DNA of 64,000 nt from an uncultured Chloroflexia bacterium (GCA_964592645.1 CAZQFV010000017.1:306-64305), one strand, 5' to 3'; positions 32,985-49,719 are shown, numbered from the stretch's first letter. Translations and numbers: made by a program. The notes: a model not told the origin generated them from the sequence alone.

Positions 32985-33461
32985 CCTTCATCTGTTAGAT
33001 CCATTGCTCACCTCGATCATCGTGGTGAGCATAGTATTATACACCATCTTACGGATCTATGAGATGACTTCTAATACAATGCCGTATAGAAGATATTGCG
33101 GGAGCGTGACACCATTATACAAAAAAGGATTGCCCATGTCAATATGGAAGCGGTAGTGACCGGTGGACTTTCGGAAAAAGTCGCAGGGGATTCTCCGTCC
33201 CCTGCCTTCTCCGGTGCTCAGACAGCCGGTGCTCGGATCGGCGCCTGATCGCCCTCCTCTCGCAGGTAGGCGGTCAGCGTCGTGTCCGCGCTTGCCCAAA
33301 ATTGCCCCCGATGGCCGAAACCCTGGCCTGTCCCCTGCCGGTGCCGGCCGATGCAGCCCTGACCCCACGCCCTTCTCGTGGAGGCGCAGCCCGTGTAGCG
33401 CCCCATCTGGGGCGAGATTCCCCTTTGCCTTCCGTTTTGGGCAATCACCGGCGCCGGTGAG

Positions 33462-33491
33462 CTGGCAAGAGGGGCCGCCCTGTGATATAAT
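33462..33491 (+). promoter_or_regulatory. Candidate promoter of the defence operon, with an extended -10
   Basis: CTGGCA, 18 nt, TGaTATAAT (TATAAT at 33486-33491), about 160 nt upstream of the SNF2 start. Confidence 0.35.
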
Positions 33492-33648
33492 GCGCAACAA
33501 GAAACAAAAACCCCGCGGCTTCGACGGAGCCCGGGGCACGGCCAAGGCGGGCGGCGCCCTGACAGATACTCTAACACCTGCCCGCCGACGGCAAGTTGGG
33601 CGGGCCTGCACGTGGGGGCCGTTACTGCACCCGGCGAGGGGATCTACT

Positions 33649-36600
33649 GTGACCGTCTTGGAGTGCCTTCAGCCCGGCGTCCGCCTCTATGACCGCCGCC
33701 TGGGGCGAGACCGCCAACTGCACCAGGTCGAACTCTATGGTCGCGTCGCCTTCCTGAGTTTCCTCGACCCGCAAACCGGAGCCGTTGACCGCCAGCCGTT
33801 CCCCCTGGACGAGATCGAGACTCGCTTCGAAGTGCCGGCGGCCGGCGGGGCGCTGTTCCACGGCGATCCCGAGGTCGTCCGGCTGATTGCCGAAGCCTAC
33901 CGCCTGCAACACGCCTACCTGTTCAACCCGGTTTTTGCCACCGAAACGTCCCTGATCGACCTGTTGCCCCACCAGTTGGCGGCGGTGTACGGCGTGCCGG
34001 CCGCCGACAACGGACCCGCCGGGCACCCCGGCCTCCTGGACCACCCCCGCCTGCGCTTCCTCCTGGCCGACGACGCCGGAGCCGGCAAGACGATCATGGC
34101 CGGCCTCTACATCCGCGAGATGCTCCTGCGCCACGCCGTGCAGCGCGTGCTCATCGTTTCCCCCGCCGGCCTGGTGGACAACTGGGAAAGGGAATTGCGC
34201 CGCTTCTTTGGGCTGCGCTTCCGCCCCATTGTGGGCAGCGACCTGGACGAGACCCACCGTCCCTTTGACGACCCCCGCTATAACCTGGCGTTGATCAGTG
34301 TGGACACCCTGGCCCGCGAACGGATGCGCGAGGCCTGCGGCGCGGCCCCGCCCTACGACCTGGTCATCTTCGACGAGGCCCATAAGCTCTCCGCCTGGCG
34401 CGAAAGCGACCTGAGCGAGCGCAAGACGCTCCGCTACCAGGCGGCCGAGGTCGTTGCCCGGCAGGGGCGCCACCTGTTGCTGATGACCGCCACGCCGCAC
34501 ATGGGCCACGACGAGCCCTACTACTTTCTCTGGCGGCTGCTCGATCCGGAGCTGTTCTCCACGGCGAGCGCCGTCCAGGAGTCGACACAGGCCCGGCGTC
34601 GCCACTATATGCTCCGGCGGATGAAGGAGGAGATGGTCCGCTTCAACGGAACACCTCTCTTTCCGCCGCGTCAGAGCGACACCGTCGAGTACCCCCTCGG
34701 CCCGGAGGAATGGAACCTCTACGAACAAGTCACCCACTATTGCCAAACCCACTACGGTCGAGCTCGGCAGCGCAACCGCGGCGCGGCCGGCCTGGCCATG
34801 AGCATCTTGCAGCGCCGCCTGGCCTCGTCCACCCTGGCCCTGTGCAAGTCGTTGGAGCGCCGACAGGAGAAACTGGCCGGCCAGCTGCGCGACCTGGAGG
34901 CCGGCCTGCTGCAACGCGAAGAATGGGAAGCCCGCCAGCGCGCGCTCCCCGACCACGATTTGCGCGACGAAAAGACGGCCGACGAAGAGGAACCGGTTGC
35001 AGGGCAGGAAGAAGGGGACCGGCAGGACGAAGAGGTTGCCGGGGCCACGGATGCTATCGGCGTGGAGGAACTGCGGGCGGAGCTGGCCGAGGTGGGGCAG
35101 CTCGCCCGCCTGGCCCGCGAGGTCCACGGTCTGGAGCAAGAGTCCAAGTTCGAGCGGCTGTGGGAGGCGCTGGAAGAATACCCCGACATCAAGGTGCTGG
35201 TCTTTACCGAGTACCGCGACACGCTCGAGTTCCTGCTGGGCCGCCTGGAGGGCAAGGGACTCACCGGCAAGGTGGCCTCCATCCACGGCGGGATGGACCG
35301 GCGCGCGCGAGGGGAACAGATCGCCCGCTTCCGCGACCCGGCCGGCGCCCGCATCATGGTGGCCACCGATGCGGCCGGCGAGGGCATCAACCTGCAGTTC
35401 TGTTGGCTGCTGATCAACTATGACATCCCCTGGAACCCGGCCCGCCTGGAGCAGCGCATGGGCCGCGTGCACCGCTACAAGCAGGAACACCGCGTCCTGC
35501 TCCTGAACGTCGTCGCGGCCCAGACGCGCGAGGGCACGGTGCTAAAGGTCCTGCTGGACAAGCTGGAGGCTATCCGCCGCGAGCTCGAGTCCGACAAGGT
35601 CTTTGATGTCATCGGCCAGCAGTTCAGCGGCCGGCCGCTGCAGGACCTGATCTTTGAGGCGGTTGTGGAAGGCAAGAAAGAGGAAGCCGTCCGCGAAATC
35701 GAGCGCACCCTATCGGTCGAGCAGGTCCGCCGCAACCTGGAACAGCAGCGCCTCAAGGTCGAGGTGTCCCCCGTGCGGGCCGTGCTGAAAGTCCTGCAGC
35801 AGCAGCGCGAGGTCGCCGAGGTGCGGCGGATGCTGCCGGCCTATGTCCGGCGCTTCTTCGAGTTGGCCGCGCCGCGGATTGGCTTGGGCATCCGGGGGGA
35901 CATCGCCGCACTCTTCTCCTTGGACCCCTGTCCGGACAGTGTCCGGCGGGCGCTCGATACGTACCCCGTCGAGATCCGCGACCGCCTGACCTTTGCGCGT
36001 GACCTGGCCGTGCCTGACATTGTTGGGGATCCCCGGGCAATCTATCTGTACCCGGGCGAGCCGGTGTTCGCGGCGGTCATGGACCTCTTCCTGGGGCACT
36101 ACGAGCCGGAAGCCGCGCGGGGGGCCGTGTACCTGGACGGGGACACCGCCGAACCCTACCTGTTCTACCTCGGCAAGGCGTCGGTCCTGCGCGTGCCGGA
36201 AGCGGCCGGGGAAGAGCCGGAAGTGGTCGCGGAGCACGTCGTGGGGGTCCGCCGCTATGCCGACGGCCGGCTGGAGCAGGCCCCCGCCCATCTGCTGATG
36301 ACCATGCTGGAGCCGGACCCGGACGTGACAGCGGAGGCGGCACTGCCCGCGGAGTTGGTTCAGTTGGCCGGCCAGCGTGGGCCGGTCGAAGCCTTCCTGG
36401 TCGAGCAGTTGGGGCTGCCGGCGCTGAAGGAGCAGCGCGCCGCCGAAGAAGCCCGCCTGCCGGAGCAGCGCCGCAACCTGCTGGTGGCCTACAACCTGCG
36501 CACGGCCGAGCTGCTGTGCCGGCGCGCCCTGCTCAAGGAGCGGGTCGAACGGGGCATCCCGGCGGCCGGCACCAAGCTGCGCGAGTGCGAAGAGGAACTG

Positions 36601-37113
36601 GCCGACCTGGACCGCCGCCGGCGCGAGAGGGAGGCCCATCTGCTCAACGCCCCGGAGCGGCTGCAGGTGGGGCCGGTCAGCCTCTACGTCCAGGCGCTGG
36701 TGCTGCCGGTGCCGCCGGAAGAGGCCGAGCGCCGCCGCGACGCGCAGGCCCAGGAGATCGCCCTGGCCCTGGTGCGCCGGCGCGAGGAGGCCGCCGGGAG
36801 CGTGGTGGAGGATGTCTCCGCGCCGCACCTCAAGGCCGGGTTCGACCTGAAGGTGCTGCGGGCCGACGGCTCGATCCGCTACGTCGAGGTCAAGGGCCGC
36901 CGCGGCCGGCCGGCCGTCGAGCTGACGGCCAACGAGTGGGCCACCGCCGCCAACCACCCCGATCGCTACTGGCTCTACGTGGTCTATGACTGCGAGACCA
37001 CGCCGACGCTCTACCAGGTGCCCGACCCCTTCGGCCGGCTGCTGGCCCGGCAGACCGGGGCGGTGCGGATCAACGCCGGCGAGGTGATGAATGCGGCGGC
37101 ACTCCTCTCTTGA
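33649..37113 (+). CDS. SNF2-family helicase with C-terminal DUF3883 (restriction-endonuclease-like) domain
   Basis: Helicase motifs LLADDAGAGKTIMAG (I), VIFDEAHKL (II), LLMTATPHMG (III) and YDIPWNPARLEQRMGRVHRYKQ (VI). The C-terminus GFDLKVLRADGSIRYVEVKGRRG...LTANEWATA...YWLYVVYD matches the DUF3883 pattern. The GTG 33649 start is provisional. The upstream part of the track ORF is Pro/Arg-rich junk. Confidence 0.85.
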   Translation: MTVLECLQPGVRLYDRRLGRDRQLHQVELYGRVAFLSFLDPQTGAVDRQPFPLDEIETRFEVPAAGGALFHGDPEVVRLIAEAYRLQHAYLFNPVFATETSLIDLLPHQLAAVYGVPAADNGPAGHPGLLDHPRLRFLLADDAGAGKTIMAGLYIREMLLRHAVQRVLIVSPAGLVDNWERELRRFFGLRFRPIVGSDLDETHRPFDDPRYNLALISVDTLARERMREACGAAPPYDLVIFDEAHKLSAWRESDLSERKTLRYQAAEVVARQGRHLLLMTATPHMGHDEPYYFLWRLLDPELFSTASAVQESTQARRRHYMLRRMKEEMVRFNGTPLFPPRQSDTVEYPLGPEEWNLYEQVTHYCQTHYGRARQRNRGAAGLAMSILQRRLASSTLALCKSLERRQEKLAGQLRDLEAGLLQREEWEARQRALPDHDLRDEKTADEEEPVAGQEEGDRQDEEVAGATDAIGVEELRAELAEVGQLARLAREVHGLEQESKFERLWEALEEYPDIKVLVFTEYRDTLEFLLGRLEGKGLTGKVASIHGGMDRRARGEQIARFRDPAGARIMVATDAAGEGINLQFCWLLINYDIPWNPARLEQRMGRVHRYKQEHRVLLLNVVAAQTREGTVLKVLLDKLEAIRRELESDKVFDVIGQQFSGRPLQDLIFEAVVEGKKEEAVREIERTLSVEQVRRNLEQQRLKVEVSPVRAVLKVLQQQREVAEVRRMLPAYVRRFFELAAPRIGLGIRGDIAALFSLDPCPDSVRRALDTYPVEIRDRLTFARDLAVPDIVGDPRAIYLYPGEPVFAAVMDLFLGHYEPEAARGAVYLDGDTAEPYLFYLGKASVLRVPEAAGEEPEVVAEHVVGVRRYADGRLEQAPAHLLMTMLEPDPDVTAEAALPAELVQLAGQRGPVEAFLVEQLGLPALKEQRAAEEARLPEQRRNLLVAYNLRTAELLCRRALLKERVERGIPAAGTKLRECEEELADLDRRRREREAHLLNAPERLQVGPVSLYVQALVLPVPPEEAERRRDAQAQEIALALVRRREEAAGSVVEDVSAPHLKAGFDLKVLRADGSIRYVEVKGRRGRPAVELTANEWATAANHPDRYWLYVVYDCETTPTLYQVPDPFGRLLARQTGAVRINAGEVMNAAALLS

Positions 37114-37186
37114 AAGCGGTGGGGGATAACAGGGCGTCATAGTGTAGTTTGACCAAGTAACCCGCCTATCCTCAAGGAGAATGTCA

Positions 37187-38449
37187 ATGATTGTGCAACT
37201 GGAGGCCCTCAATTACCTCTGTCTCCGCCATATCCGCCAGGGGCTGGCCCCGTTCCAGGTCCTGGTCGGCCCCAATGCTAGCGGCAAATCCACTTTTCTG
37301 GACATAGTGGGGTTCCTCGCCGATATCGTCCGTGAGAAAGAGGGGGTCGCCGCCGCCGTAGCAAACCGTGTGCCTGATGTCCGCGATCTGGTATGGATGC
37401 GCCGGAGCGACGCTTTCGAGCTGGTCATGGAAGCGACGGTACCGGATACGCTTCGACAGCGTAAGAACGGAGCCCACAGCCGCGTGCGCTACGAGGTGCG
37501 CGTTGGCCTCCATCCGGGGAGCGGTGAAATCAACCTGCTCGTGGAAACGCTCTGGCTGCGCCCGGAACCGCAGCCGGAGGGGAAACCCATCCAGCCTACT
37601 CTCTTCCCGGCTCCTCCATCCCCGCCGGCGACTATCGTTCGTGTTCCCCGCCGGCGGGCGCCGGCCGGCTGGCGGATGGTGCTACGCAAAGTACCCGAGT
37701 CCGGCAACGACTACTTCCGCTCCGAGACTTCCGATTGGAACAACCTCTTTCGCCTGGGACCGCGCCGTTCGGCCCTGGCAAACCTGCCGGAAGATGAGGA
37801 AAAGTTCCCATCAGCCATCTGGTTCCGCCGCCTACTCCTGGAGGGAGTACAGCGGTTGACGCTGAACAGCAAGATGCTGCGCCAACCCAGTCCACCCGCC
37901 AGCCCACGCCGCTTCCTGCCCGACGGGTCCAACCTCCCTTGGGTCGTCAAGAATATGGAGGACAAGGCTCCCGACCGACTGCAAGAATGGATCCGGCACG
38001 TGCGTACGGCGTTGCCCGATCTGCGCGGCATCCGAACCGTGGAGCGCGAAGAGGATCGCCATCGCTACATCGTCCTGGACTATGAGACCGATCTGCACGC
38101 CTGCTCCTGGCAGGTGTCCGACGGCACGCTGCGCATGCTGGCCCTGACCGTCCTGGCCTACATCCCTGACCTGGGGGGCGTTTACCTGGTCGAGGAGCCG
38201 GAAAACGGCATCCATCCGCGGGCGGTGGAGACGGTGTTCCAGTCCTTGTCCTCTGTCTACGGAGCCCAAGTCCTGTTGGCCACGCACTCGCCCGTCTTGT
38301 TGAGCCTGGCGGCGCCGGACCAAGTGTTGTGCTTCGCCCGCTATGAGGGCGCTACGGACATCGTGCGCGGTTCGGAGCACCCGCGCCTGAGCGAGTGGCG
38401 CGGCGAAACCGACCTGGGTACCCTCTTTGCCAGCGGAGTGTTGGGATGA
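37187..38449 (+). CDS. ABC/SMC-type AAA ATPase (AAA_15/21-like), copy 1
   Basis: Walker A VLVGPNASGKSTFLD, signature-like SDGTLRMLAL, Walker B VYLVEEPENGIHP, LLATHSP. Confidence 0.85.
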   Translation: MIVQLEALNYLCLRHIRQGLAPFQVLVGPNASGKSTFLDIVGFLADIVREKEGVAAAVANRVPDVRDLVWMRRSDAFELVMEATVPDTLRQRKNGAHSRVRYEVRVGLHPGSGEINLLVETLWLRPEPQPEGKPIQPTLFPAPPSPPATIVRVPRRRAPAGWRMVLRKVPESGNDYFRSETSDWNNLFRLGPRRSALANLPEDEEKFPSAIWFRRLLLEGVQRLTLNSKMLRQPSPPASPRRFLPDGSNLPWVVKNMEDKAPDRLQEWIRHVRTALPDLRGIRTVEREEDRHRYIVLDYETDLHACSWQVSDGTLRMLALTVLAYIPDLGGVYLVEEPENGIHPRAVETVFQSLSSVYGAQVLLATHSPVLLSLAAPDQVLCFARYEGATDIVRGSEHPRLSEWRGETDLGTLFASGVLG

Positions 38450-39060
38450 AAGACCTGATCGTTCTCGCGGCCGATAAGAACATCGAGTACGCCGTCCGCG
38501 GTCTGCTGGAACGCTCCGCCGACCTGGGGATTCACCCGCCCGAGTCCGAAGTGATCGTTCACCCCCGACGGGACCCCGGCTGTTTCAATGAGGCGCCCGA
38601 CTTCCTGCGGCCATGGACGCGCCAGTTTCGGCACACGCTTGTCTTGTTCGATTACGCCGGCTGCGGATGTGAGCACAGGCTGGAGGCGGACACCGTTGCT
38701 GATGACCTGCTAGGGCGACTGGCCCGCAACGGCTGGGATAACCGGGGGGAGGTAGTTGTCCTGAATCCGGAACTCGAAGCCTGGGTATGGAGTAGCCGGC
38801 CCTATGTGGACGTCTGTCTGGGCTGGGCCGGCCGGCAACCCCCGTTACGGGAATGGCTGGCCCAAAGCGGATTCTGGCCACCCAATGCGCCCAAGCCTCC
38901 CGATCCCAAGGGCGCCATGGAGGCCGCCCTGCGCCAGGTGCGGAAGCCGCGCTCCTCGGCCATCTACCTGAACCTGGCCCGGCAGGCGACCTTGGGCGGC
39001 CACACCGAACGCGGCTTTGTGCGCTTCGCACAGGCTTTGCAAAGGTGGTTCCCCCGATGA
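38446..39060 (+). CDS. Small partner protein, a divergent DUF4276/Toprim-like paralog (hypothetical)
   Basis: ATGA start/stop overlap with the ATPase. Collinear with 42980..43579: LIVLAADKNIEYAVRGLLER vs VIVPIVEGQGEVEAVPILLRR; VLFDYAGCG vs LLLDAEEDC; ELEAWVW vs KYECWFV. Confidence 0.6.
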   Translation: MKDLIVLAADKNIEYAVRGLLERSADLGIHPPESEVIVHPRRDPGCFNEAPDFLRPWTRQFRHTLVLFDYAGCGCEHRLEADTVADDLLGRLARNGWDNRGEVVVLNPELEAWVWSSRPYVDVCLGWAGRQPPLREWLAQSGFWPPNAPKPPDPKGAMEAALRQVRKPRSSAIYLNLARQATLGGHTERGFVRFAQALQRWFPR

Positions 39061-41789
39061 CCTATCGTCTCATCGAGCAAGCCTTTCCACTCAAAAAGGT
39101 CTCGGCCGACTCCAAGCATGAGAAGAACGTCCGCCACGGCCACATCTCCACGCTGCACATCTGGCCGGCCCGCCGGCCGTTGGCCGCCTGCCGCGCCGCG
39201 CTCATCGCCGCGCTGCTGCCCGACCCCGGCGACGAGGCCGGCCGGGCCGAGCTGTGCCGCAAGATCGGGCGCATCACCCGCTGGGGCACGGAGGACGGGC
39301 CGGAACTGGAGTTCTTCCGCCGCGAGATCCGCCGGGCCTACGGCGGGCGCGCCCCGCGCGTGCTGGACCCCTTTGCCGGCGGCGGGGCCATCCCCCTGGA
39401 GGCCATGCGCCTGGGCTGCGAGGTGGTGGCCAACGACTATAACCCGGTGGCGTGGTTCATCCTGAAGTGTACGCTCGAGTTCCCCCAAAGGCTGGCGGGG
39501 AAGAAGTGGCCGTTGCCCGAATCACAGGGGCCGGGGACAAGGGACAACGGACAAGGGGGGCCGACCCAGATGAGGTTTGGGGATGCGGGCGCCGCCGAGG
39601 GCGACCTGGCCGCCCACGTGCGCTACTGGGGCCACTGGGTGCTGGAGCACGCCCGGAAGGAGCTGGCCCCCTACTATCCCACGGTGGACGGCCGGCCCAC
39701 CGTGGCCTACCTCTGGGCGCGCACCGTCCCCTGCCCCGACCCGGCCTGCGGGGCCGAGGTGCCGCTGCTGAAGACGCTGTGGTTGTGCAAGAAGGAGGGC
39801 AAGCGCCGGGCGCTGCGCCTGGTGCCCGACCCGGCACACCATCGCGTCGGTTTCGAGGTCTGGACCCCCGGCCCCAAGGACGAGGTGCCCGCAGGCACGA
39901 TGGCCGGGGCCAAGTGCCGCTGCCCGGTCTGCGGCACGGCGATTACCACCGACTACATCAAGCAGCGCGGGCACGAGGGCCAACTGGGGGCGCGGATGAC
40001 GGCCGTGGTGGTGGAGACCGGGCGAGGCAAGGAGTACCGCCTGCCGACGGCAGAGGAAGAGCAGGCCGCCCGGCGCGCGGCCGAGGCGCTCCCCTCCGCC
40101 GCGGCGCAGATTCCCTACGGCCTGCCGGCGGAGCCGCTGCCCGAGAGTGGGACATCCGGCGCCGGACGCGCATTCACGATCCCCCTCTACGGCTTCCGCA
40201 CCTGGGCCGACCTCTTCACCCCGCGGCAGTTGCTGGCGCTGGGCACCTTTGTCCGTTGGACCCGCCTGGCGCGGGAGGAGATGCGCCGGCTGGGGTATCC
40301 CGAGGAAAAGGTGGAAGCAGTGGAGGCATACCTGGCCAGTATCGGAGACAAGTGTGCGGACTACGGCTCATCTCTCGCCAGGTGGGAAAATGGTGGTGAG
40401 TTCATTGCTCCTACATTTCAACGTTTTGCTCTAGCCATGCTGTGGGATTTCGCCGAAACAAACCCGTTGCGTTCCGTATCTGGCTCGTTTGAGAATCACC
40501 TTGACTGGACAGTGCGCTACATAGAACATGCCCTTGCGGCTACGGAGAGAGGTGGAAACCTTACCATCGCGCAGCAATCGGCGACCCAATCTCTTGATTG
40601 CCTTGCGGATGCGGTCGTCACCGATCCACCCTACTACGACGCCATCCCCTATGCCGACCTTTCGGACTTTTTCTACGTCTGGCTGCGCCGCGCCGTCGGC
40701 GACCGGTATCCGGAGAACTTTGCCACACCCACCACGTGTAAGGCCGATGAGTTGGTGCAACAGCACAAGGACGGCCGGGCAGGGCGCAAGGGCAAAGAGG
40801 AATACGAGGCGGGCATGGCCGAGGCATTCCGCCGCGTCTGGGAATCGTTGGCGCCCGACGGGCGCATGGTCGTCGTCTTTGCCCACAAGGACCCCGAGGC
40901 CTGGGAGACGCTGGTCACGGCCATGGTCGGGGCCGGGTTCACCGTGACCGCTTCCTGGCCTATTGACACAGAACGAGGAAGCAGGGTGCGAGCACATGGC
41001 AGTGCCGCTCTGGCCTCCTCCATCTGGATGGTCTGCCGCAAGCGGCCCGAGGGGGCCGGGGTGGGCCGCTACGCCGCGGTGCGCAAGGCCATGCAGGAGC
41101 GCATCACCGAGCGGCTGCGCTACTTCTGGGACGCCGGCATCGGCGGGGCCGACTTTGTCTGGGCGGCGGTGGGGCCGGCGCTGGAGTCGTACTCGGCCTA
41201 CGACGAGGTGCGCCGGTTGGACGGCACGCCCTTTACCGTGGGCGAGTTCCTGCGCGAGGTGCGCCGGCTGGTGGCCGATTTCGCCCTGGGGCGCATCCTG
41301 AGAGGGCACTCCACCGAGGGCCTGGACGAGTGGACGCGCTACTACCTGATCCACCGCAGCACCTTTGGGCTGGAAGCGGCCCCGGTGGGCGAGTGCATCC
41401 TGCTTTCGCAGGGCTACGGCCTGGACCTGAACGAGCTGCGCGGGCCGCGGGGCTTTCTCGTCAGAGCGGTCGGCAGCGACCTGCGGCTGGCCGCCTGGGA
41501 AGAACGTGTCCGGGATGATTTGGGCGAACCCCATCCTAGTGGCGGCCTGCCGCTGGTGGATGTCCTGCACCGGCTGATGCGGCTGTGGGAGGGCGGGCAG
41601 TTGGACGCCCTCAACACCTACGCGGCCGGCAAGGGCCTGCCGCAGAACGATCTCTTCTGGGCCGTGGCCCAGGCCGTGCTGGAGATGGCCGGGGTTAGGA
41701 GCAAGGAGCGGACGCTGCTGGAGGCGGTGGTGGCATGGGGGCGGGGTGGCCGAGTCCATGAGGTTGTCCAACTGGAGTTGCCCGGTTAA
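39057..41789 (+). CDS. DUF1156-type DNA methyltransferase (N6-A/N4-C class) with an internal zinc ribbon
   Basis: The N-terminus LIEQAFPLKKVSADSKHEKNVRHGHISTLHIWPARRP is the DUF1156 hallmark. VLDPFAGGGAIPLEA is the SAM motif I. VVTDPPYYD is motif IV (DPPY at 40623-40634). CPDPACG...CRCPVCG is the zinc ribbon. ATGA overlap with the upstream gene. Confidence 0.85.
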   Translation: MTYRLIEQAFPLKKVSADSKHEKNVRHGHISTLHIWPARRPLAACRAALIAALLPDPGDEAGRAELCRKIGRITRWGTEDGPELEFFRREIRRAYGGRAPRVLDPFAGGGAIPLEAMRLGCEVVANDYNPVAWFILKCTLEFPQRLAGKKWPLPESQGPGTRDNGQGGPTQMRFGDAGAAEGDLAAHVRYWGHWVLEHARKELAPYYPTVDGRPTVAYLWARTVPCPDPACGAEVPLLKTLWLCKKEGKRRALRLVPDPAHHRVGFEVWTPGPKDEVPAGTMAGAKCRCPVCGTAITTDYIKQRGHEGQLGARMTAVVVETGRGKEYRLPTAEEEQAARRAAEALPSAAAQIPYGLPAEPLPESGTSGAGRAFTIPLYGFRTWADLFTPRQLLALGTFVRWTRLAREEMRRLGYPEEKVEAVEAYLASIGDKCADYGSSLARWENGGEFIAPTFQRFALAMLWDFAETNPLRSVSGSFENHLDWTVRYIEHALAATERGGNLTIAQQSATQSLDCLADAVVTDPPYYDAIPYADLSDFFYVWLRRAVGDRYPENFATPTTCKADELVQQHKDGRAGRKGKEEYEAGMAEAFRRVWESLAPDGRMVVVFAHKDPEAWETLVTAMVGAGFTVTASWPIDTERGSRVRAHGSAALASSIWMVCRKRPEGAGVGRYAAVRKAMQERITERLRYFWDAGIGGADFVWAAVGPALESYSAYDEVRRLDGTPFTVGEFLREVRRLVADFALGRILRGHSTEGLDEWTRYYLIHRSTFGLEAAPVGECILLSQGYGLDLNELRGPRGFLVRAVGSDLRLAAWEERVRDDLGEPHPSGGLPLVDVLHRLMRLWEGGQLDALNTYAAGKGLPQNDLFWAVAQAVLEMAGVRSKERTLLEAVVAWGRGGRVHEVVQLELPG

Positions 41790-41798
41790 GGAGGACCT

Positions 41799-42983
41799 AT
41801 GATTACCGAGGTGCAGATCAAGAACTACCGCAGTCTGGCCCAAGTAGTTGTTAACCTCGAACGGCTTACGATCCTCGTCGGCCCCAACGGGGCAGGCAAG
41901 AGCAACTTTGTGGACGCACTGCGCTTTGTTGCCGACGCGCTCAGCACGACGCTGGAACTTGCCCTCAAGCAACGCGGCGGTATCAACGCCGTCCGGCGGC
42001 GCTCCAAGGGACATCCCACCCACTTTGGCCTGCGTGTCCGCATGGACTGGGGGCGAGGGGACGGAGCCGTGTACTCGTTCAAGATCTCGGCATTGCCGCG
42101 GGGCGATTTCGCCGTGAGCCAAGAGATGGGACATATCTGGGGGCCCAAGGCAGTTCCGGCCCACCAGTTTTCGGTCAGAGATGGCGTGCTGACGACAAAC
42201 ATAAAGGGTTTGCGGCCCAAGATCGAAAGAGATCGCCTGGCCTTGACCGTTCTGTCCGCTACCGAGGAGGTGCGCCCTCTCTATGACTCGCTTACTCAGA
42301 TGCGTTTCTACTCGCTGGTGCCTGACCGCATCCGCGAGCTACAGGAACCCGATCCTGGGCAGGCGCTGAAGCGCGACGGAAGCAATGCCGCAGCCGTCCT
42401 GCGGGAGATCAGGAAGCACTCGCCGCAGGACTATGAGCGTGTCTGTCGTCTGCTGAGCAAGGTCGTTCCAGGCACGACCGGCGCGGAATACCTGTCTGCG
42501 GGACCAAAAGAAACGTTGCAGTTTCGACAAGACGTGGGCGACGCCAACCCGTGGTCGTTTGAGGCCCTCAATATGTCCGATGGGACGTTGCGCGTTCTTG
42601 GCGTCCTGCTGGCTGTCTATCAGACGCCTACTCCCCCCTTCATTGCCATTGAGGAACCCGAATCCACCATCCATCCGGCGGCCGCAGAGGTTTTGGTGAA
42701 CATATTTTCTGAGGCTTGCACCCGCTCGCAGATATTGATTACAACCCATAGCCCGGACATCCTCGACAGCAGAGAACTCCAGGACAATCAGATACGGGCC
42801 GTGGAGTACCAAAATGGAAGGACAACGATCAGCCCCCTAGGGCCGGTGTCACGGGAAGCCATCCGAAAGAATCTCTACACGCCCGGCGAGCTGCTCCGCA
42901 TGGGCGAACTGGAGCCGGACCGTGAGGTCGGCGCGCGGTTGGGTCAGCAGCTATCCTTGTTTGGCTGGAAGGTGAAACCATGA
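41799..42983 (+). CDS. ABC/SMC-type AAA ATPase (AAA_15/21-like), copy 2
   Basis: Walker A ILVGPNGAGKSNFVD, SDGTLRVLGV, Walker B FIAIEEPESTIHP, LITTHSP. Clear paralog of 37187..38449. AAGGAGGA lies upstream. Confidence 0.85.
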   Translation: MITEVQIKNYRSLAQVVVNLERLTILVGPNGAGKSNFVDALRFVADALSTTLELALKQRGGINAVRRRSKGHPTHFGLRVRMDWGRGDGAVYSFKISALPRGDFAVSQEMGHIWGPKAVPAHQFSVRDGVLTTNIKGLRPKIERDRLALTVLSATEEVRPLYDSLTQMRFYSLVPDRIRELQEPDPGQALKRDGSNAAAVLREIRKHSPQDYERVCRLLSKVVPGTTGAEYLSAGPKETLQFRQDVGDANPWSFEALNMSDGTLRVLGVLLAVYQTPTPPFIAIEEPESTIHPAAAEVLVNIFSEACTRSQILITTHSPDILDSRELQDNQIRAVEYQNGRTTISPLGPVSREAIRKNLYTPGELLRMGELEPDREVGARLGQQLSLFGWKVKP

Positions 42984-43579
42984 ATCCGGTCATTGTCCCA
43001 ATAGTGGAGGGCCAGGGCGAGGTTGAGGCCGTCCCCATCCTGCTTCGCCGAATCCTCCACTCCTGGGAAGCCTTCGCCTGCGACATCAGGCGGCCAATAC
43101 GTGTCAAGCGCCAGCGAGTGGTCAAACCTGGCGAATTGGAGCGCGTACTTGAACTGGCTGCCATGCAGCCTGGATGCCGGGCTGTTCTGCTCTTGCTCGA
43201 CGCGGAGGAAGACTGCCCGGCCATTCTAGGACCGGCCCTCCTTGAGCGGGCGCAAAAGGCAAGACCTGACATTCCGTGCCGGGTTGTGCTGGCCAAAGCA
43301 AAGTATGAGTGCTGGTTTGTCGGCAGTATCGAATCGCTGCGAGGGCAGTGTGGGATTCGAGCCGACGCAGCAGCACCGGACTCGCCCGAGGAAATGAAGG
43401 GGGCCAAGGCCTGGCTGACCCAACACATGGAGCATAGGCGAACCTACCAGGAAGTAGATGATCAGCCCCCGTTGACCGCGAGTTTCGACATAGAACTGGC
43501 TCAGCGGTCTTGCCCTTCTTTTGACAAGCTGCTACGCGATCTTCGGGACCTGCAGACCCTGCTGTCTGAGGAGCAATGA
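42980..43579 (+). CDS. DUF4276 family (Toprim-like) protein
   Basis: MNPVIVPIVEGQGEVEAVPILLRR, LLLLDAEEDCP, AKAKYECWF. This is the acidic E...DxE/D pattern I associate with DUF4276. ATGA overlap with the ATPase stop. Confidence 0.7.
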   Translation: MNPVIVPIVEGQGEVEAVPILLRRILHSWEAFACDIRRPIRVKRQRVVKPGELERVLELAAMQPGCRAVLLLLDAEEDCPAILGPALLERAQKARPDIPCRVVLAKAKYECWFVGSIESLRGQCGIRADAAAPDSPEEMKGAKAWLTQHMEHRRTYQEVDDQPPLTASFDIELAQRSCPSFDKLLRDLRDLQTLLSEEQ

Positions 43580-43580
43580 G

Positions 43581-46500
43581 ATGTCCGTATTCATGTGGCA
43601 CCACCTCTGTACCCTCCGCGACGACGTTCGCGCCGGCCGGCTCACCCTGGACGAGTTCGCCGCCGACCTGAACGGCGTGCGCACCGGCGAATCGCCGCCC
43701 GTCTACCGCGAAGCGACGATGTTCTTCTCGCGCACCTACCCGACCTACCGCATGAAACAACTGGTGCGCGATGTCCTCCTGCGGCTGGCCGGCCGGGGAG
43801 GCAAACCCGTGCAGCAGCTCCAGGTGGCCTACGGCGGCGGCAAGACGCACACCCTGATCACCCTGCTGCACCTGGCCGAGCAGGGGCCGGGTCTGGCCGA
43901 CCACCCGACGGTGCAAGAGTTCTTCACCTTTGCCGGCCTGCCCCATCCACCCCGCGCCCGCGTGGCCCTGCTTCCCCTGGACAAGTTCGACGTCAAGGAA
44001 GGGCTGGAAGTCTGCGGCCCCGCCGGGCAACCCCGCCGCGTGCGCACCCTCTGGGGCGCCCTGGCCCATCAACTGGCCGGGGACGCCGGCTACGCCCGGC
44101 TGAAAAGCCACGACGAGGAGTTCACCGTCCCGGCCGAGCCGCTGCTGGTGGACCTGCTGCGCGCGCCGTTGCACGAGGGCCTGGGCGCGCTGGTGCTGGT
44201 GGACGAGGCCGTCTGGTACTACCGCAACCTGGTGCTGGCCAACCCCCGCGCCTTTGGCGCGCTCAAGGATTTCTACCAGGTGCTCACCCAGGCTGTGGCC
44301 AAGGTCGAACATGCCGCATTGGTGGCCGCGCTCGTCGCTTCCAAGGTTGAGGCCAACGACCATACGGGCATCCAGTGCCTCGGCGCGCTGGAGGACATCT
44401 TTGGCCGCATCGCCGAACCGGTGGAGCCGGTGACGCGCGAGGACGTGGCCGAGGTGCTGCGGCGCCGCCTGTTCGAGAGTGTCGCGGGCGAGGCCGAACG
44501 CCGGCCGGTGGTCGATGCGGTGATGGCCGCGATGCAGCGACTGCCGCTGCGCGACGCCCAGCGCGACCAGGCGGCCTACCACCGGATGATGGAAAGCTAC
44601 CCCTTTCACCCCGACCTGGTCGAGGTGCTCTACCAGAAGTGGACCCAGTATGACGGCTTTCAGCGCACCCGCGGCGCCCTGCGCCTGCTCGCCTATGCCC
44701 TGCGCGAGACGGCCGGCCACGACCCCTCGCCGCTGATCGGCCCCTGGGCGCTGCTCAACCCGGAGGGTCCCTCTCTCTCTCCGGCCCTGAACGAGCTGGT
44801 GCCCATCTGCCAGGAGCGCGAAAAATGGGGGCCCATCCTCACGGGCGAGCTGGCCAAGGCCCGCGAGGTTCAGGCCGGCCTGCCCACGCTGCCGCACCGG
44901 GAGATGGAGCAGGCGGTCGTCGCCACCTTCCTGCACTCGCACCCGCCGGGGCAGCGCGCGTCGCCTTCGGAGCTGCTGGCGCTGCTGGCCCACCCCGAGG
45001 GGGACCCGGCCGCGCTCGAGGAGGGGCTGCGCAAGTGGCGCGGTATCTCGTGGTTCCTGGTCGAGGACCCGCAGGTGTGGCGGCTGAGCACGCACCCCAA
45101 TCTCAACCACATCCAGGCCCGGGCCCTGGAGTCATTGAACGAACCGGACGTCGAGGCCGAGCTGCGCAGGCGCATCGCCGCCGTCCCCGCGCTGCGCGAG
45201 GCCGACGCGGGCGTCGCGGTGCATATCCTGCCCAAATCCCCGGCCGATGTCCCGGACAACCTGGAACTGCGCTACCTGGTGCTGGGACCGGAGTGCGCCG
45301 TCGAGCCGGGCAAGGCGTTGCCGGCCGAGGTCGAAGCCTACTTCGACCAGGTCACCGGCCCGCAGAACCCGCGTATCTACCGCAACAACGTCATTGCCCT
45401 GGTGCCGGAAGCGTCGCGGATGGCCGGCCTGCGCAACCGGGTGCGCGAGTACCTGGCCTGGGACCGCGTGGAGAACGTGGCCGAGTACCGCCAGGCGCTG
45501 ACCGAGCAGCAGCGGCGCGAGTTGGTTCAGCGCAAGGGCGCCGTGGCCGGCAGCTTGCCCGAGTCGGCGGTAGCGGCATACAACCTGCTGGTGGCCGTCG
45601 ACGAGAGCGGCAAGGTGGGCCTGTCGACGCTCCGCCACGCCGGCGCGACGGCCTTTGACCGCATCAAGGCAACGCTCGCGGAAGAGGAGCGTATCATCGT
45701 CAACACCGTGGACCCCGACCTGCTCCTGCCGGGGAGTTACCTGGACCTGTGGCGGGAGGGGGAAGAGAGCAAGCGCGTCCCCGACCTGATGGCCGCCTTT
45801 GGGCAGTTTCACCGCCTGCCGCGCCTGCTGCGCCCCGACGTGCTCTACGAATCGCTGCGGCGCGGCGTGCGCGAGGGCACGCTGGTCCTGCGGCTGGTCC
45901 GCGGCGATGGCTCCATGCGCACCTACTGGCGCACCCTCCCCGACGAGGACACCCTGCGCCGGCCCGACCTGGAGCTACAGTCATCCGGCCGGGCCACCTT
46001 GCACAATCTGGAGCCTGAGCTGTTGTCGCCGCAGAAGGTCGAGGCCCTCTGGCCGCTTCCGACGGGGCCCGCGACTTTGGAAGACTGGCGCGCTTGCTTT
46101 GACGGTGTGCGTCTCCCCCGCCTACGGGATGCCGGCGTCCTGGACGAAGCCCTGCGCGCCGCGGTTTGCCGGGGTTTGCTCATGGCCCGCCTGGGCCGGG
46201 CCTCCTACTTCCGCGAGGCCCTGCCGGAGGGGCAACTCGCGGGTACGCTGGAGTTGCTGGCCCCGCCGCGGCCCATTCGCGGCGCCGACCTGACCCCCCA
46301 GGCCATGCCGGAGGTTTGGGTGGGAGGACAGACCACCGCCCAGCGATTGATGGAAGCCATATCCGCGGAGCGCGGCTATCCCATACCCTGGACTCTCCTC
46401 CAGGACGGGATTGAGGATGCTTTGCGGCTGCACCTTCTGGCGCGTTCCGCGGATAGCGGCCCCTGGCCCTGTTCGCCGGGCGCGGCCGGCGAGGTCGTGT

Positions 46501-46958
46501 TCCGGGTAGTCGAGGAGATCCACCTGACCGTGGACACGATCATTGCCGCGCTGCCCTACGCCGAGAGTGAAACCCCAACGCTGCGCGCGCTGAAAGAGGC
46601 AGTCGAGATGCAGATTCTGGGCAAACCGGTTCCCGAGGACCAGTTCATCGGCGTCGTCCGGGAAGCCCTGAACCGGCGCGCGCTGCAGGCGGTTGACCTG
46701 CCCGTGCAGCAACTGACGCTCTCGACACGGGTCCGCCGCCCGCCGGTGGCCCTGGTCGCCGACGCCACGCTGAGCGCGGCCGAGGTGCAGCGGCTGGCCG
46801 AGATCGCCGCGCAGTTGCTCTCCATCGCGCCCGGGCTGGAGTTCACCTTCCGGGTTGTGCTGACGGCGGAAGGGGAGCCGCCTGACGAGCAGGTATCCGA
46901 AGGGCTCAACGACGCCCTGGAGAAGGTCAAGGCCGGCTGGCGGTTCTCCGGTTCATGA
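43581..46958 (+). CDS. DUF499-type large P-loop ATPase
   Basis: The N-terminus LRDDVRAGRLTLDEFAADLNGV...FFSRTYPTYRMKQLVRDVLLRLAG....QLQVAYGGGKTHTLITLLHL (Walker A) and LVLVDE (Walker B) fit the DUF499 layout. The start lies 1 nt after the upstream stop. Confidence 0.8.
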   Translation: MSVFMWHHLCTLRDDVRAGRLTLDEFAADLNGVRTGESPPVYREATMFFSRTYPTYRMKQLVRDVLLRLAGRGGKPVQQLQVAYGGGKTHTLITLLHLAEQGPGLADHPTVQEFFTFAGLPHPPRARVALLPLDKFDVKEGLEVCGPAGQPRRVRTLWGALAHQLAGDAGYARLKSHDEEFTVPAEPLLVDLLRAPLHEGLGALVLVDEAVWYYRNLVLANPRAFGALKDFYQVLTQAVAKVEHAALVAALVASKVEANDHTGIQCLGALEDIFGRIAEPVEPVTREDVAEVLRRRLFESVAGEAERRPVVDAVMAAMQRLPLRDAQRDQAAYHRMMESYPFHPDLVEVLYQKWTQYDGFQRTRGALRLLAYALRETAGHDPSPLIGPWALLNPEGPSLSPALNELVPICQEREKWGPILTGELAKAREVQAGLPTLPHREMEQAVVATFLHSHPPGQRASPSELLALLAHPEGDPAALEEGLRKWRGISWFLVEDPQVWRLSTHPNLNHIQARALESLNEPDVEAELRRRIAAVPALREADAGVAVHILPKSPADVPDNLELRYLVLGPECAVEPGKALPAEVEAYFDQVTGPQNPRIYRNNVIALVPEASRMAGLRNRVREYLAWDRVENVAEYRQALTEQQRRELVQRKGAVAGSLPESAVAAYNLLVAVDESGKVGLSTLRHAGATAFDRIKATLAEEERIIVNTVDPDLLLPGSYLDLWREGEESKRVPDLMAAFGQFHRLPRLLRPDVLYESLRRGVREGTLVLRLVRGDGSMRTYWRTLPDEDTLRRPDLELQSSGRATLHNLEPELLSPQKVEALWPLPTGPATLEDWRACFDGVRLPRLRDAGVLDEALRAAVCRGLLMARLGRASYFREALPEGQLAGTLELLAPPRPIRGADLTPQAMPEVWVGGQTTAQRLMEAISAERGYPIPWTLLQDGIEDALRLHLLARSADSGPWPCSPGAAGEVVFRVVEEIHLTVDTIIAALPYAESETPTLRALKEAVEMQILGKPVPEDQFIGVVREALNRRALQAVDLPVQQLTLSTRVRRPPVALVADATLSAAEVQRLAEIAAQLLSIAPGLEFTFRVVLTAEGEPPDEQVSEGLNDALEKVKAGWRFSGS

Positions 46959-47060: not shown

Positions 47061-48020
47061 TCACCCCTGCCTGCTACGGATGTACGGCGATTGCCGGACG
47101 ATGTACCGGCGTGCCAGGGGAGAGAGGAGCCGCAACATGGGTCGCTGCCAGCGCTTACGGAAGGCAAGCTGGGCCAGGTAATCGGAGAAAGTATACCGCT
47201 GGTATTGTAGCAGGCGCTGGCTCTCGCGTGTGTCCATCCAGCCACCACCCTGCCGGGCCACCGGGCTAAAGGCCTCTGCCGGCAACCGCCCCAGTCCCAA
47301 CGCCTCCAGGGTACGATTGATCATCTCGCCGTAGTAGACCTGGCAGGCCGGCCCTCCACCGATCATCCAGATCCGCCCCCAGGCCGCAGCGCAGGGCAGG
47401 CAGTTGGCAATGGCCAGGGCCGCGTCGCGAGGATGCAGGTATTCCTGGCGGGCATCCGGCGGCAGGTCGAAGATAACCGGATCCAACCGGCCGACCGGTT
47501 CCGGCGGCAGCACCGATCCGAAGCGCAAGATACACCAGGTCAGCCCGGAGGCGCGCACCATCTCCTCCACGGCGATCTTGTGCTCGTTATAGTGGTTCAG
47601 CGCCTGAAGGGGGCTTTCGGGTGTCAGCAACCCCGTCAGGCCACGGGTGTCGCCGTGAACCGAGTAACTGGAAGCGAAGAGGAGCCGGACGGGGTTTTTC
47701 TGCCCCTGCAGCGCGGCGATGAGGTGTTGCGACCCGTTCACGTTGGCGGCGCGGGCCAGGTCCGGCGACCGTTCGCTCTGCGGCGGCAACACAAAGGCCA
47801 GGTGTACCACGGCCTCTTGACCGTCCACCGCCCGGGCGACATCGTCCGGCCGGCGGATATCTCCCCAGAGCACCTCAACCGCGCCGCCGTACTGTGCCGC
47901 CGTGCGGCGGGTGGCCGGCGCGGGCCGGTCGAAGGCGCGGACGGTGTGCCCTTGCGCCAAGAGTTCGTGTAGGGTGGCCGTGCCGATGTTTCCAAACGCT
48001 CCGGTAACGAGCACCCGCAT
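47061..48020 (-). CDS. NAD-dependent epimerase/dehydratase family protein
   Basis: MRVLVTGAFGNIGTATLHELL Rossmann motif and YNEHK in the Y-x3-K position. AAGGAG lies upstream of ATG 48020. The ORF extension to 48266 was rejected. Confidence 0.85.
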   Translation of the reverse strand: MRVLVTGAFGNIGTATLHELLAQGHTVRAFDRPAPATRRTAAQYGGAVEVLWGDIRRPDDVARAVDGQEAVVHLAFVLPPQSERSPDLARAANVNGSQHLIAALQGQKNPVRLLFASSYSVHGDTRGLTGLLTPESPLQALNHYNEHKIAVEEMVRASGLTWCILRFGSVLPPEPVGRLDPVIFDLPPDARQEYLHPRDAALAIANCLPCAAAWGRIWMIGGGPACQVYYGEMINRTLEALGLGRLPAEAFSPVARQGGGWMDTRESQRLLQYQRYTFSDYLAQLAFRKRWQRPMLRLLSPLARRYIVRQSPYIRSRQG

Positions 48021-48054
48021 CGGCCTGCTCCTTGGAACCAACCCGTTCTGCTCT

Positions 48055-49719
48055 CTATAGCCGGTACTGCTCCACAACCTTGTACAGTTGGTCGGCCAGG
48101 CGGTGCAGATCTCCCGCCGCCCGCTCCGACTGCTGTGTGCTTGCCAGGCTCTGCGCCATCGCCTGCTGGATGTTGTGCATAGCCACGGCCATCTGCTCCA
48201 TCCCCGTCGTCTGCTGGGTAGCAGCCGCGGCAATCCCGGTCGAAACCTGCACCGATTCGACCACACTTTCCGCCAGTTGGCGGATCACCTCCCCGGCCTG
48301 GCTGGCTTGCCGCATACCGGCGTCGGCACCCTTGATGCCTTCTTCGGTGGCCATCACGGCGGCGTTGACGCCGCGCTGGATTTCGGTGAGCAGATCGCGC
48401 ACCTGGACCGTAGCCGCGCGGCTCTGTTCGGCCAAGGCGCGCACCTCCGTTGCCACCACGGCAAATCCCCTGCCGGCCTCGCCGGCCCGCGCCGCCTCCA
48501 CGGCAGCGTTCAGCGCGAGCATGTTGCTCTGACTGGCGATGTCGCCGACCGCGGCAATGATCTGTCCGATGGCTTGGGTATGCTCGGAAAGATCCAGAAT
48601 GTTGTGGGCGATCGTTTCGACCTTGTGCCGTACTTCCTGCATGCGGCCGACCGTATCGGCGACGGCCTGCTGGCCGGCCTGGGCAGATGCCGTGGTCCGT
48701 TCGGCCTGCTCGGTCACGCGCTGGGCACGCTGGGCGGTCTGCTCGGCGATGGCGCGGACCTCGTCGATCGTGCTGGAGGCCTGGGCGATGGCGGCAGACT
48801 GCTCGCTGGCGCCGGAGGCCTGCTGGGTGGTGGCGGCCAGGATTTCGGCCGAGGCCGAGGTCAGATTGGTCGCGGCGTCGCGGATGCGCGCGGTCATGCG
48901 CTGCAGACTGGCCACCGTCTCGTTCAGCGAGCGGGCCAAGATGCCCAGTGGCTCGTCTGCGCCTTCTTCCGCGTCCTCCAGGTGCAGGCGGCCGGCCAGG
49001 TTGCCTTGCGCCACTTCGGTCATGAAAGCGCCGTACCGCTCCACGGCCCGGCGTAGCGCAGCGTTGCGCTGCTCCAGGGCCGCCCGGATGCCCTGCAGTT
49101 CCCGGCTGCTCTCGGTCAGGGCCTTCTCGTTGTGCCGGGCCCGCTCCAGCGCCCGGCGCAGGTTGCCGGTGGCGACGTTGAGAACAACCGCCGAAACCAG
49201 AACATAGATGCACAGGGAGGCCCAGGTGGACAGCAGCGTATCCAGCCCAATCGGCTTCGGTAGGAGGCCCTGGCTGTGGGCGGCCACCAGGGCCAGTTCG
49301 GTCAGGACGCTCAGGCCGGCAAAGATGAAGCCGCCGCGCCCTCCCAGCAGGAGGCCGCCGATGACGGTGACGACGACAAACCCGTATACCGAGGAACCTT
49401 GTACACCGCTGAAGATGACCGTGACCGCCGTCATGAATGCCCACAATACGATCAGAAAGATGGCACTGGCAGCGCCAACGTAGCCAAGCCGCGCCAGGGC
49501 CAGGGTACCCACTCCGACGACGAGCAAAATGCTCACCAGGGGCAAGGAGTATTGCGGGTTGGTCCAGGTAGCCAGGGCAAAGATGGCGTAGATGACAAGG
49601 ATCGTCAGCAAGGCCAACTGCATAGGGTAGAAGAGGGCGGCGGCGCGAGTCTTGTCCTCATCCTCCTCAAAAACCGGCGCCGTCAGGAGGCGTCGGATGC
49701 GGGTAAACCATTTTCTCAT
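48055..49719 (-). CDS. Methyl-accepting chemotaxis protein (multi-TM + HAMP + MA domain)
   Basis: Highly conserved signalling hairpin ...[40 protein letters not shown]... and an N-terminal hydrophobic region. Confidence 0.9.

Follow-up and report, generated by a model that had tools for sequence, protein, structure and literature searches.

The locus considered here raises the question of whether seven tightly packed genes encode a single machine or a known defence system into which other genes have been inserted. The genes occupy positions 33649-46958 of a 64,000-nucleotide stretch of DNA from an uncultured Chloroflexia bacterium (GCA_964592645.1, CAZQFV010000017.1:306-64305), the whole of which is referred to as the window. 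The second answer is favoured. As regards identity and architecture, the locus is quite probably an intact Hma (Helicase, Methylase, ATPase) system, i.e., a Type-1 DUF499-centred BREX-related (BR) system, which carries two independently acquired embedded ATPase/TOPRIM cassettes; each of the biochemical steps proposed below is held with less confidence. The genes, numbered g1 to g7, are the following.

33649-37113, + strand: g1, hmaA, GTG start, 1154 amino acids
37187-38449, + strand: g2, gene A of cassette 1 (predicted ABC ATPase), alternative start at 37181
38446-39060, + strand: g3, gene B of cassette 1 (putative DUF4276/TOPRIM-like protein)
39057-41789, + strand: g4, hmaB (predicted DUF1156 methyltransferase)
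41799-42983, + strand: g5, gene A of cassette 2 (predicted HEC-01A ABC ATPase)
42980-43579, + strand: g6, gene B of cassette 2 (predicted HEC-01B protein, DUF4276)
43581-46958, + strand: g7, hmaC (predicted DUF499 ATPase)

The layout reported in the initial annotation, with seven genes on the same strand, three ATGA overlaps and gaps of 1 and 9 nucleotides, was reproduced. Both the listing of open reading frames (ORFs) and direct translation place the overlaps at 38446-38449 (g2/g3), 39057-39060 (g3/g4) and 42980-42983 (g5/g6). The 9-nucleotide gap between g4 and g5 (41790-41798) contains AAGGAGG, a single nucleotide (43580) separates g6 from g7, and the spacer between g1 and g2 measures 67 nucleotides. 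Shine-Dalgarno-like boxes precede all seven starts. The ORFs are real genes rather than chance ones, since every gene but g3 exceeds the Pfam gathering scores and g3 has 313 homologues at E <= 1e-3; all seven are full-length relative to their homologues and without frameshifts, and the predicted catalytic motifs are intact. The reading frame of g1 is open upstream to 33163; because homologues and gene calls give 1154 amino acids and a promoter-like site lies within the upstream extension, 33649 is retained as the hmaA start, and the longer ORF from 33163 was rejected as coding. In the case of g2, an AAGGAG box stands 1 nucleotide from the first ATG (37181) and 7 nucleotides from the second (37187). 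This spacing, together with calls of 420 amino acids on four independent short contigs carrying identical genes and an alignment of the homologue in a related locus (L081, described below) that begins at 37187, indicates that g2 probably starts at the second ATG and encodes 420 amino acids.

The three large proteins form the core of the locus. g1 is predicted to be an SNF2-family helicase with a C-terminal NOV_C/DUF3883 nuclease of the PD-(D/E)xK type: Pfam detects Helicase_C (6.5e-25), NOV_C (PF13020, formerly DUF3883; 5.5e-19) and SNF2-rel_dom (1.4e-12), the PADLOC model for HmaA covers residues 57-1131 (2.9e-181), and the motifs include GAGKT at 144, DEAH at 242 and the nuclease residues D1066, E1080-V-K1082 and E1096. 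g4 is assigned an N-terminal DUF1156 domain followed by a DNA methyltransferase of the N6-adenine type, on the basis of Pfam matches to DUF1156 (4e-20) and, below threshold, to methyltransferases, as well as PADLOC matches to HmaB (2.7e-146) and DUF1156_MTase (2.8e-46). Its motif I (D-x-FAGGG, 104-110) and motif IV (DPPY, 523-526) are separated by an insert of ~400 amino acids, and FAGGG and DPPY are invariant across 25 homologues. g7 is a predicted DUF499 ATPase of the ORC/Cdc6-type AAA+ class, matching DUF499 in Pfam (2.6e-25) and, in PADLOC, HmaC over residues 1-764 (4e-110) and DUF499 (2.2e-25); it exhibits a GGGKT P-loop near residue 87 and an LVLVDE Walker B motif at 204, and is devoid of an N-terminal HEPN domain. 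The PADLOC rule for Hma calls for one strand, each gene once and at most three embedded genes between neighbours, and the window carries hmaA, hmaB and hmaC once each on the + strand, in the order A-(2 genes)-B-(2 genes)-C. PDB sequence searches revealed no solved relatives of HmaB (queried as a single sequence and as a 25-sequence profile) or of HmaC, so that MANTIS or BREX structures are unusable for residue mapping.

Each of the two gaps within this core holds a gene for an ABC ATPase followed by a gene for a small protein, an arrangement resembling that of HEC-01 (“Hma-embedded candidate 01”), which comprises an ABC ATPase and a TOPRIM protein (10.1101/2024.01.29.577857). Both g2 and g5 are predicted to be OLD-family ABC ATPases. 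g2 matches AAA_21 (1.7e-34) and also AAA_15 in Pfam, and HEC-01A (6.5e-44), AriA (9.8e-35) and mad3 (5.5e-28) in PADLOC; its motifs comprise GPNASGKS, an SDG signature, an EEPE Walker B and a THS H-loop. g5 matches AAA_21 (1.1e-30), AAA_15 (5.7e-22) and SMC_N (1.1e-15) in Pfam and HEC-01A over its full length (1.7e-134) in PADLOC; it displays GPNGAGKS, SDG, EEPE and THS, and its PDB sequence matches are PtuA, OLD and GajA. The two ATPases share 29% identity, which is confined to the P-loop N-terminus and the C-terminal half, and their middle inserts are unrelated.

Of the small proteins, g6 is assigned to the DUF4276 family of TOPRIM-type putative nucleases by Pfam (7.1e-14, 52.9 bits against a cut-off of 30.2) and by the HEC-01B model of PADLOC (7.8e-65). 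It contains an N-terminal VEGQGE motif, LLLLDAEED and an E-C-W motif, with acidic residues E10, E14, D74 and E109. g3 has no match of its own in the Pfam scan, and PADLOC yields mad4 (4.4e-6) and HEC-01B only at E 0.0083. UniRef gives the name DUF4276 family protein to one of its homologues, from Cystobacter fuscus, PF14103 matches are precomputed for several, and DUF4276 is matched by 7 of the 41 aligned relatives, with a best E-value of 4.3e-6. An AlphaFold2 model computed from the family alignment (pLDDT 94.8, pTM 0.90) has as its top two Foldseek matches in the PDB the Toprim C-terminal regions of OLD nucleases from Burkholderia and Xanthomonas (6nk8 and 6njv). Neither BLASTP nor hhalign of the g3 family profile detects significant similarity between g3 and g6. 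The conserved acidic residues of g3 are D10, E14, D43, D69, E109 and E111, and D10, E14, D69 and E109/E111 fall at places corresponding to E10, E14, D74 and E109 of g6. Family membership and the fold model together point to g3 as a divergent, DUF4276/TOPRIM-like putative nuclease; both small proteins would thus be Toprim-type partners of the preceding ABC ATPases, in agreement with the two ATPase/Toprim-like pairs initially proposed. With at least 313 members, the g3 family makes up a subfamily of its own; g3 itself has diverged too far to be recognised by the HEC-01B or Pfam DUF4276 model. The other domain assignments of the initial annotation also stood, as searches for SNF2, Helicase_C, DUF3883, DUF1156, DUF499, AAA_15/21 and DUF4276 confirmed all of these families, and Pfam, PADLOC and the motifs agree.

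A third candidate subfamily of this kind was noticed elsewhere. The N-terminus VLVIPEDFRNDQYILKPL is common to the partners of ABC ATPases embedded between hmaB and hmaC in four loci (L058:14400-15020, L073:14373-14738, L080:14430-15011 and L078:15902-16465), and its pattern, in which acidic residues come after a strand, suggests a third DUF4276/TOPRIM-like subfamily. jackhmmer linked these proteins to neither g3 nor g6.

The relationship between core and cassettes was approached by comparing related loci. A pattern scan based on the HmaB alignment, with one genome per species, yielded 80 loci, which were labelled by tblastn and jackhmmer; 54 complete related loci, the window included, were compared, and an insert was defined as more than 400 nucleotides between neighbours. 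The order hmaA-hmaB-hmaC is invariant, and the gaps vary from overlaps to 7.7 kb. Inserts occur between hmaA and hmaB in 43 of the 54 loci and between hmaB and hmaC in 34; 30 have both and 7 have neither. The conserved portion is the three-gene core, and the inserts are variable. An ABC ATPase is present in the hmaA-hmaB gap of 10 loci and in the hmaB-hmaC gap of 11, and most of the loci contain none; only the window and L058, from a Dehalococcoidia metagenome-assembled genome (MAG), have one in both gaps. In L009, two ATPase+DUF4276 pairs stand in tandem within the hmaB-hmaC gap, and relatives of g2 or g5/g6 are found upstream of hmaA in L004, L014 and L034 and downstream of hmaC in L045.

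Searches of all 80 HmaB-anchored loci by jackhmmer and hmmsearch, in which g3 and the profile of its family were the queries, detected no relatives of g3; the genomic contexts of such relatives were recovered separately, via the contigs that encode them. Pairs of the g2-g3 type always show a 4-nucleotide overlap. In Cystobacter fuscus (L088), L090 and L091, such a pair is found by itself, surrounded by unrelated genes, and in L089 (Candidatus Roseilinea sp., BPHV01000004.1) it occupies the same position between hmaA and hmaB as in the window. In L089, hmaB and hmaC are fragmented and a toxin-antitoxin-like pair (DUF433/DUF5615) lies between them; to judge from its sequence, L089 is a decaying relative.

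The closest relative with long context is represented by L081, L082 and L083, whose core proteins are 73-77% identical to those of the window. The gene order in L081 (JGI 3300022548, Ga0212092_1000182) is hmaA, MazE, PIN, a 57-residue DUF1156 fragment, an ABC ATPase, a g3-like protein, hmaB and hmaC, without g5-g6. Its ABC ATPase is 76% identical to g2 and its g3-like protein 65% identical to g3. The 57-residue ORF, just 5' of the embedded ABC ATPase (L081:8584-8757), repeats approximately the first 40 residues of the L081 HmaB (10609-10740) and is 92% identical over 37 residues to the N-terminus of HmaB in the window (39066-39176). This duplicated hmaB 5' end looks like the scar of a cassette insertion by recombination. 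At the hmaB-hmaC junction of L081, a 53-residue ORF (13404-13565) starts with MITKLSVRAFKGLREF, the N-terminal sequence of a different ABC ATPase type, the one that L001-L003 and L009 carry at this junction. Since it keeps only the first 16 ATPase codons, followed by two palindromes (e.g., GCCTCGTGCCCACGCTCAGCGTGGGCACGAGGC), it reads as what is left of a lost cassette, a stub whose place a small repeat element may have taken. A protein with TPR and CHAT domains adjoins the L081 Hma locus.

Base composition differs between core and cassettes. The GC content at third codon positions (GC3) is 0.88 in hmaA, 0.84 in hmaB and 0.88 in hmaC, 0.77 in both g2 and g3, 0.71 in g5 and 0.66 in g6. In the window as a whole, GC content is 66-73%, with a drop to 56-60% at 30-34 kb and to ~62% at 42-44 kb. 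The comparative loci and GC3 together argue for a conserved three-gene core with two separable cassettes acquired at different times, of which g5-g6 would be the more recent acquisition. The nearest Hma relatives are from Anaerolineae/Chloroflexota MAGs, for which horizontal transfer may be the explanation.

The genes are nevertheless arranged for joint expression. A promoter-like site on the + strand (33462-33491), CTGGCA-18-TATAAT with an upstream TG, faces hmaA from ~160 nucleotides upstream; it is a consensus match only. No convincing + strand terminator was found on scanning 33649-46958. The operon ends at hmaC, because the gene that follows, an epimerase (47061-48266), is convergent. The single strand, the overlaps or gaps of at most 9 nucleotides (the g1-g2 spacer apart), the Shine-Dalgarno-like boxes and the one upstream promoter-like site suggest that all seven genes would be expressed from one promoter upstream of hmaA. 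Of the single transcript and stoichiometric co-translation proposed in the initial annotation, the former is supported: the stop/start overlaps favour co-transcription and translational coupling. They do not show stoichiometric assembly of seven proteins, and the comparative data argue for separable cassettes. The spacer upstream of the operon (32984-33649) is divergent, with promoter-like sites on both strands; on the minus strand, a perfect TTGACA-17-TATAAT consensus (33142-33114) faces an ankyrin gene. The surroundings of the operon include the following features.

741-3518, + strand: NACHT + FGE-sulfatase protein, 925 amino acids
4505-7132, + strand: SIR2_2 + CHAT fusion, 875 amino acids
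8113-8187, - strand: tRNA-Asp, adjoining the NACHT and SIR2_2 genes
28915-28988, + strand: tRNA-Asn, ~4.7 kb upstream of the operon
30026-31495, - strand: 489-residue protein of no family, in a low-GC (0.56) pair with the next
31506-32984, - strand: 492-residue ankyrin-repeat membrane protein (PADLOC PDC-M72A, 6e-33), second of the low-GC (0.56) pair
49840-51930, - strand: CpXC zinc-finger + CHAT protease-domain protein, 696 amino acids, 3 kb downstream of hmaC, with no PADLOC match

At 29.0-29.7 kb lies pseudogene-like debris, with pieces resembling sigma-70 and transposase genes spread over different frames. The window contains neither an integrase nor a direct repeat (>=11 nucleotides) of the tRNA-Asn 3' end, so that the GC drop and this debris are the only hints of an island integrated at tRNA-Asn. 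The NACHT + FGE-sulfatase and SIR2_2 + CHAT architectures are typical of STAND or caspase-like conflict systems, and the CpXC + CHAT gene is likewise of the conflict type. The flanking genes are otherwise ordinary chromosomal ones, among them genes for fatty-acid synthesis, for a chemoreceptor and a histidine kinase, and for a TPP-dependent oxidoreductase that has 4Fe-4S ferredoxin domains.

The main competing interpretation is that the seven proteins form one integrated machine, in which the ATPase/TOPRIM pairs serve Hma as obligate subunits, either effectors or sensors, that read HmaB methylation or guard HmaC/HmaB. The ATGA overlaps extend to the cassette-core boundaries, all genes lie on one strand, and in the window, as in L081-L083 and L089, the g2-g3 lineage is found in the same place, between hmaA and hmaB. 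In MADS, the methylation-associated system to which g2 and g3 show matches, resistance depends on the corresponding mad3 and mad4, and the lethal effect of deleting mad5 is relieved when mad3 is lost; some embedded modules may need system-encoded inputs (PMC12839542). The 7 insert-free loci and the majority without any ABC ATPase speak against obligate subunits, as do the variation of cassette position and type among close relatives, including the loss in L081 that left a stub, the pairs of the g2-g3 type that stand alone in three unrelated genomes, the deviating GC3 of the cassettes and the ability of HmaA alone to defend in Halomonas. An integrated seven-protein machine is thus considered unlikely. 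A related proposal, equally doubtful, is that the cassettes are wired to the Hma chassis and exchanged by recombination, with the conserved hma genes serving as flanking homology. The g2-g3 lineage could have co-diversified with this Hma clade, monitoring HmaB/HmaC and being set off once these are blocked by an anti-restriction protein of a phage; or else, by analogy with mad3/mad4 in MADS, g2-g3 could use the methyl mark of HmaB. If the cassettes were so wired, two different pairs would make a three-layer immune circuit from one transcript, and the duplicated hmaB 5' end and ATPase stub of L081 would mark recombination-based cassette exchange.

The remaining alternatives concern the identity and integrity of the locus. 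The initial annotation had tentatively linked the helicase/methylase/DUF499 triad to MADS, and in favour of a MADS variant are the mad3 and mad4 matches of g2 and g3, a mad2 match of g4 (4.4e-10) and the fact that both are methylase-containing multi-gene operons. The triad, however, is that of Hma, and only g2/g3 resemble mad3/mad4: for the three large proteins the Hma models are better by at least 100 orders of magnitude, there is no kinase or specificity subunit, and the mandatory MAD6, MAD7 and MAD8 are unmatched, with no mad6-8 model in the complete PADLOC lists of g3, g4, g6 and g7 or among the best 25 matches of g1, g2 and g5. A MADS variant is therefore hardly credible. No more credence is given to another BREX-family or DISARM system (Type-2 BR/MANTIS, BREX type 3 or DISARM) mis-scored as Hma. 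The families are genuinely homologous, as reflected in secondary PADLOC matches of g1 to DrmD (4e-110), BrxHII (5e-85) and PLD_Helicase (1.6e-28), of g4 to PglX (3e-11) and of g7 to BrxC (6e-3), yet the Hma models lead by far and cover the full length, the C-terminal NOV_C PD-(D/E)xK nuclease is the Type-1 BR signature, and PglZ, the DrmA/B/C set, DUF3780/MtsB and an HKD/PLD domain are missing. Membership in MADS, MANTIS/Type-2 BR, BREX type 3, DISARM or PARIS was rejected in each case because defining components are missing. Finally, the position of the locus just past tRNA-Asn and pseudogene-like debris, and the visible fragmentation of L089, would suit a decaying relic that is no longer functional; given seven full-length ORFs without frameshifts, intact catalytic motifs and Shine-Dalgarno boxes, this too is very improbable, if marginally less so than the two misidentifications.

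The preferred reading is an intact Hma core with two separable cassettes. Its gene content, intact motifs, family assignments and the modularity of the cassettes among related loci follow from the sequences, whereas the specificity of methylation, what HmaC does, what triggers the cassettes and the defence phenotype are extrapolated from Halomonas HmaA, from MANTIS and from PARIS, OLD and Gabija. For the core, homology with Halomonas HmaA and with the Type-2 sister system MANTIS suggests that HmaB would methylate host DNA at adenines in a short sequence motif, that HmaC, the AAA+ ATPase, would load or license HmaB on DNA and report unmodified sites, and that the SNF2 motor of HmaA would translocate, whereupon its PD-(D/E)xK domain would nick or cleave unmodified incoming DNA. 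PARIS, OLD and Gabija provide the analogy for the cassettes, in which each ABC ATPase may sense a phage-derived trigger via its own variable insert domain and then release or activate its TOPRIM nuclease partner, so that the cassettes would be largely autonomous second-line defences on the shared Hma transcript. The statement in the initial annotation that the mechanism is essentially unknown is outdated, as nickase-dependent defence by HmaA has been shown and MANTIS has been dissected biochemically. In Halomonas, a quadruple mutation of the D/E-x-K/E nuclease residues of HmaA abolished defence, and the mutated C-terminal fragment lost most of its nickase activity (Liu et al. 2024, PMC11232893). 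In MANTIS (formerly Gao_RL), the methyltransferase hemimethylates asymmetric 6-bp sites after it has been loaded by the DUF499 AAA+ ATPase together with a small co-factor, and a helicase-HKD nuclease restricts unmodified DNA (Shaw et al. 2026 preprint, 10.64898/2026.09.23.753747).

Several observations weigh against this account. Halomonas HmaA alone sufficed against T4, and T4 from cells overexpressing HmaB did not escape (PMC11232893); methylation-based discrimination between self and non-self is thus not yet demonstrated for Type-1 systems. The MANTIS mechanism derives from a Type-2 system with an HKD nuclease and MtsB, the latter being absent here. The one HEC-01 representative tested protected E. 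coli from none of the phages tried (10.1101/2024.01.29.577857). For g3, the Foldseek matches reach probabilities of 0.99 and 0.97 and a TM-score of ~0.49, with a weak E-value of 1e-2. The contigs that encode the nearest relatives of g3 (57-65% identity) also encode those of HmaB, so that the g2-g3 pair appears stably associated with this Hma clade, which fits functional integration as well.

The locus makes a modest addition in three respects: a rare double ABC-ATPase/TOPRIM configuration, a putative DUF4276/TOPRIM-like fold assignment for more than 300 unannotated proteins of the g3 family and, in the close relative L081, sequence traces of apparent cassette gain and loss between conserved hma genes. 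With two distinct cassettes, the compact seven-gene operon would also be a convenient construct for studying cassette dependence, methylation discrimination in Type-1 systems and the triggers of HEC-01.

Comparison with known systems places the locus among those already described. The cassettes resemble PARIS, OLD and GajA, in which an OLD-family ABC ATPase is combined with a Toprim nuclease, and g2/g5 match the AriA, Old and GajA models and PDB chains. The partner is of the DUF4276 type here and of the DUF4435 type in AriB; Pfam and PADLOC gave no DUF4435 or AriB match for g3 or g6, and AriA is only a secondary match for g2 and g5. In OLD and GajA the Toprim domain is fused to the ATPase, whereas here it is a separate protein. 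MADS comprises eight genes, and its detection model requires MAD6-8, with mad3 and mad4 being accessory in the model despite being needed for resistance (Maestri et al. 2024; 10.1101/2023.03.30.534895). There, too, an operon that includes a methylase houses an ABC ATPase paired with a DUF4276-like protein (mad3/mad4), but the large proteins of the present locus are from other families. With MANTIS the locus shares a homologous DUF499 ATPase, a DUF1156-type adenine methyltransferase and an SF2 helicase-nuclease, and the PADLOC models DUF499, DUF1156_MTase and PLD_Helicase match g7, g4 and g1. The nuclease of MANTIS is an N-terminal HKD/PLD domain and that of g1 a C-terminal PD-(D/E)xK domain; neither MtsB (DUF3780/3870) nor HKD/PLD domains were detected in Pfam scans of the seven proteins. 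MANTIS is the best available mechanistic template for the locus, which is not a member of it.

The likeness to Hma extends to the same three proteins, their order and strand, and the embedding of genes between the hma genes. The initial annotation had regarded this embedding as a peculiarity of the variant; it is in fact a published hallmark of Hma, since embedded genes occur in 62.7% of 1,485 systems and, in 96.7% of cases, share the orientation of the system around them (Payne et al. 2024 preprint, 10.1101/2024.01.29.577857). The commonest embedded family consists of diverse ABC ATPases paired with TOPRIM (HEC-01), NERD or PIN proteins (10.1101/2024.01.29.577857). g5-g6 are strong full-length HEC-01 members and g2 is a moderate HEC-01A match, with the same ATPase-then-TOPRIM order and 4-nucleotide overlap; g3 diverges, as its HEC-01B score indicates. 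According to Liu et al. (PMC11232893), insertions occur in ~66.5% of hma loci and include an AAA_21 gene with an unannotated partner between hmaB and hmaC. Halomonas Hma embeds Septu and an AAA_21 pair, and the window an ATPase/TOPRIM cassette in each gap; the residues altered in the defence-dead quadruple mutant of Halomonas HmaA are conserved in g1 (D1066, E1080, K1082 and E1096). Rakesh and Krishnan (2026, PMC12839542) describe the same entity under another name, Type-1 BR, with a DUF499 AAA+ ATPase, a DUF1156 N6-methyltransferase and a Swi2/Snf2 helicase bearing a C-terminal active PD-(D/E)xK restriction endonuclease. They regard dyads of OLD-ABC and TOPRIM proteins as “backup effectors” in BREX and BR loci of at least 1,242 taxa, and report an N-terminal HEPN domain on the DUF499 ATPase in ~56% of Type-1 taxa, a domain that HmaC here is without. 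Hma itself was named by Payne et al. in 2021 from 1,638 loci in 26 phyla (PMC8565338), and many equivalent loci are already catalogued. The architecture has thus been published, and the locus is a good example of it rather than a new kind of system.

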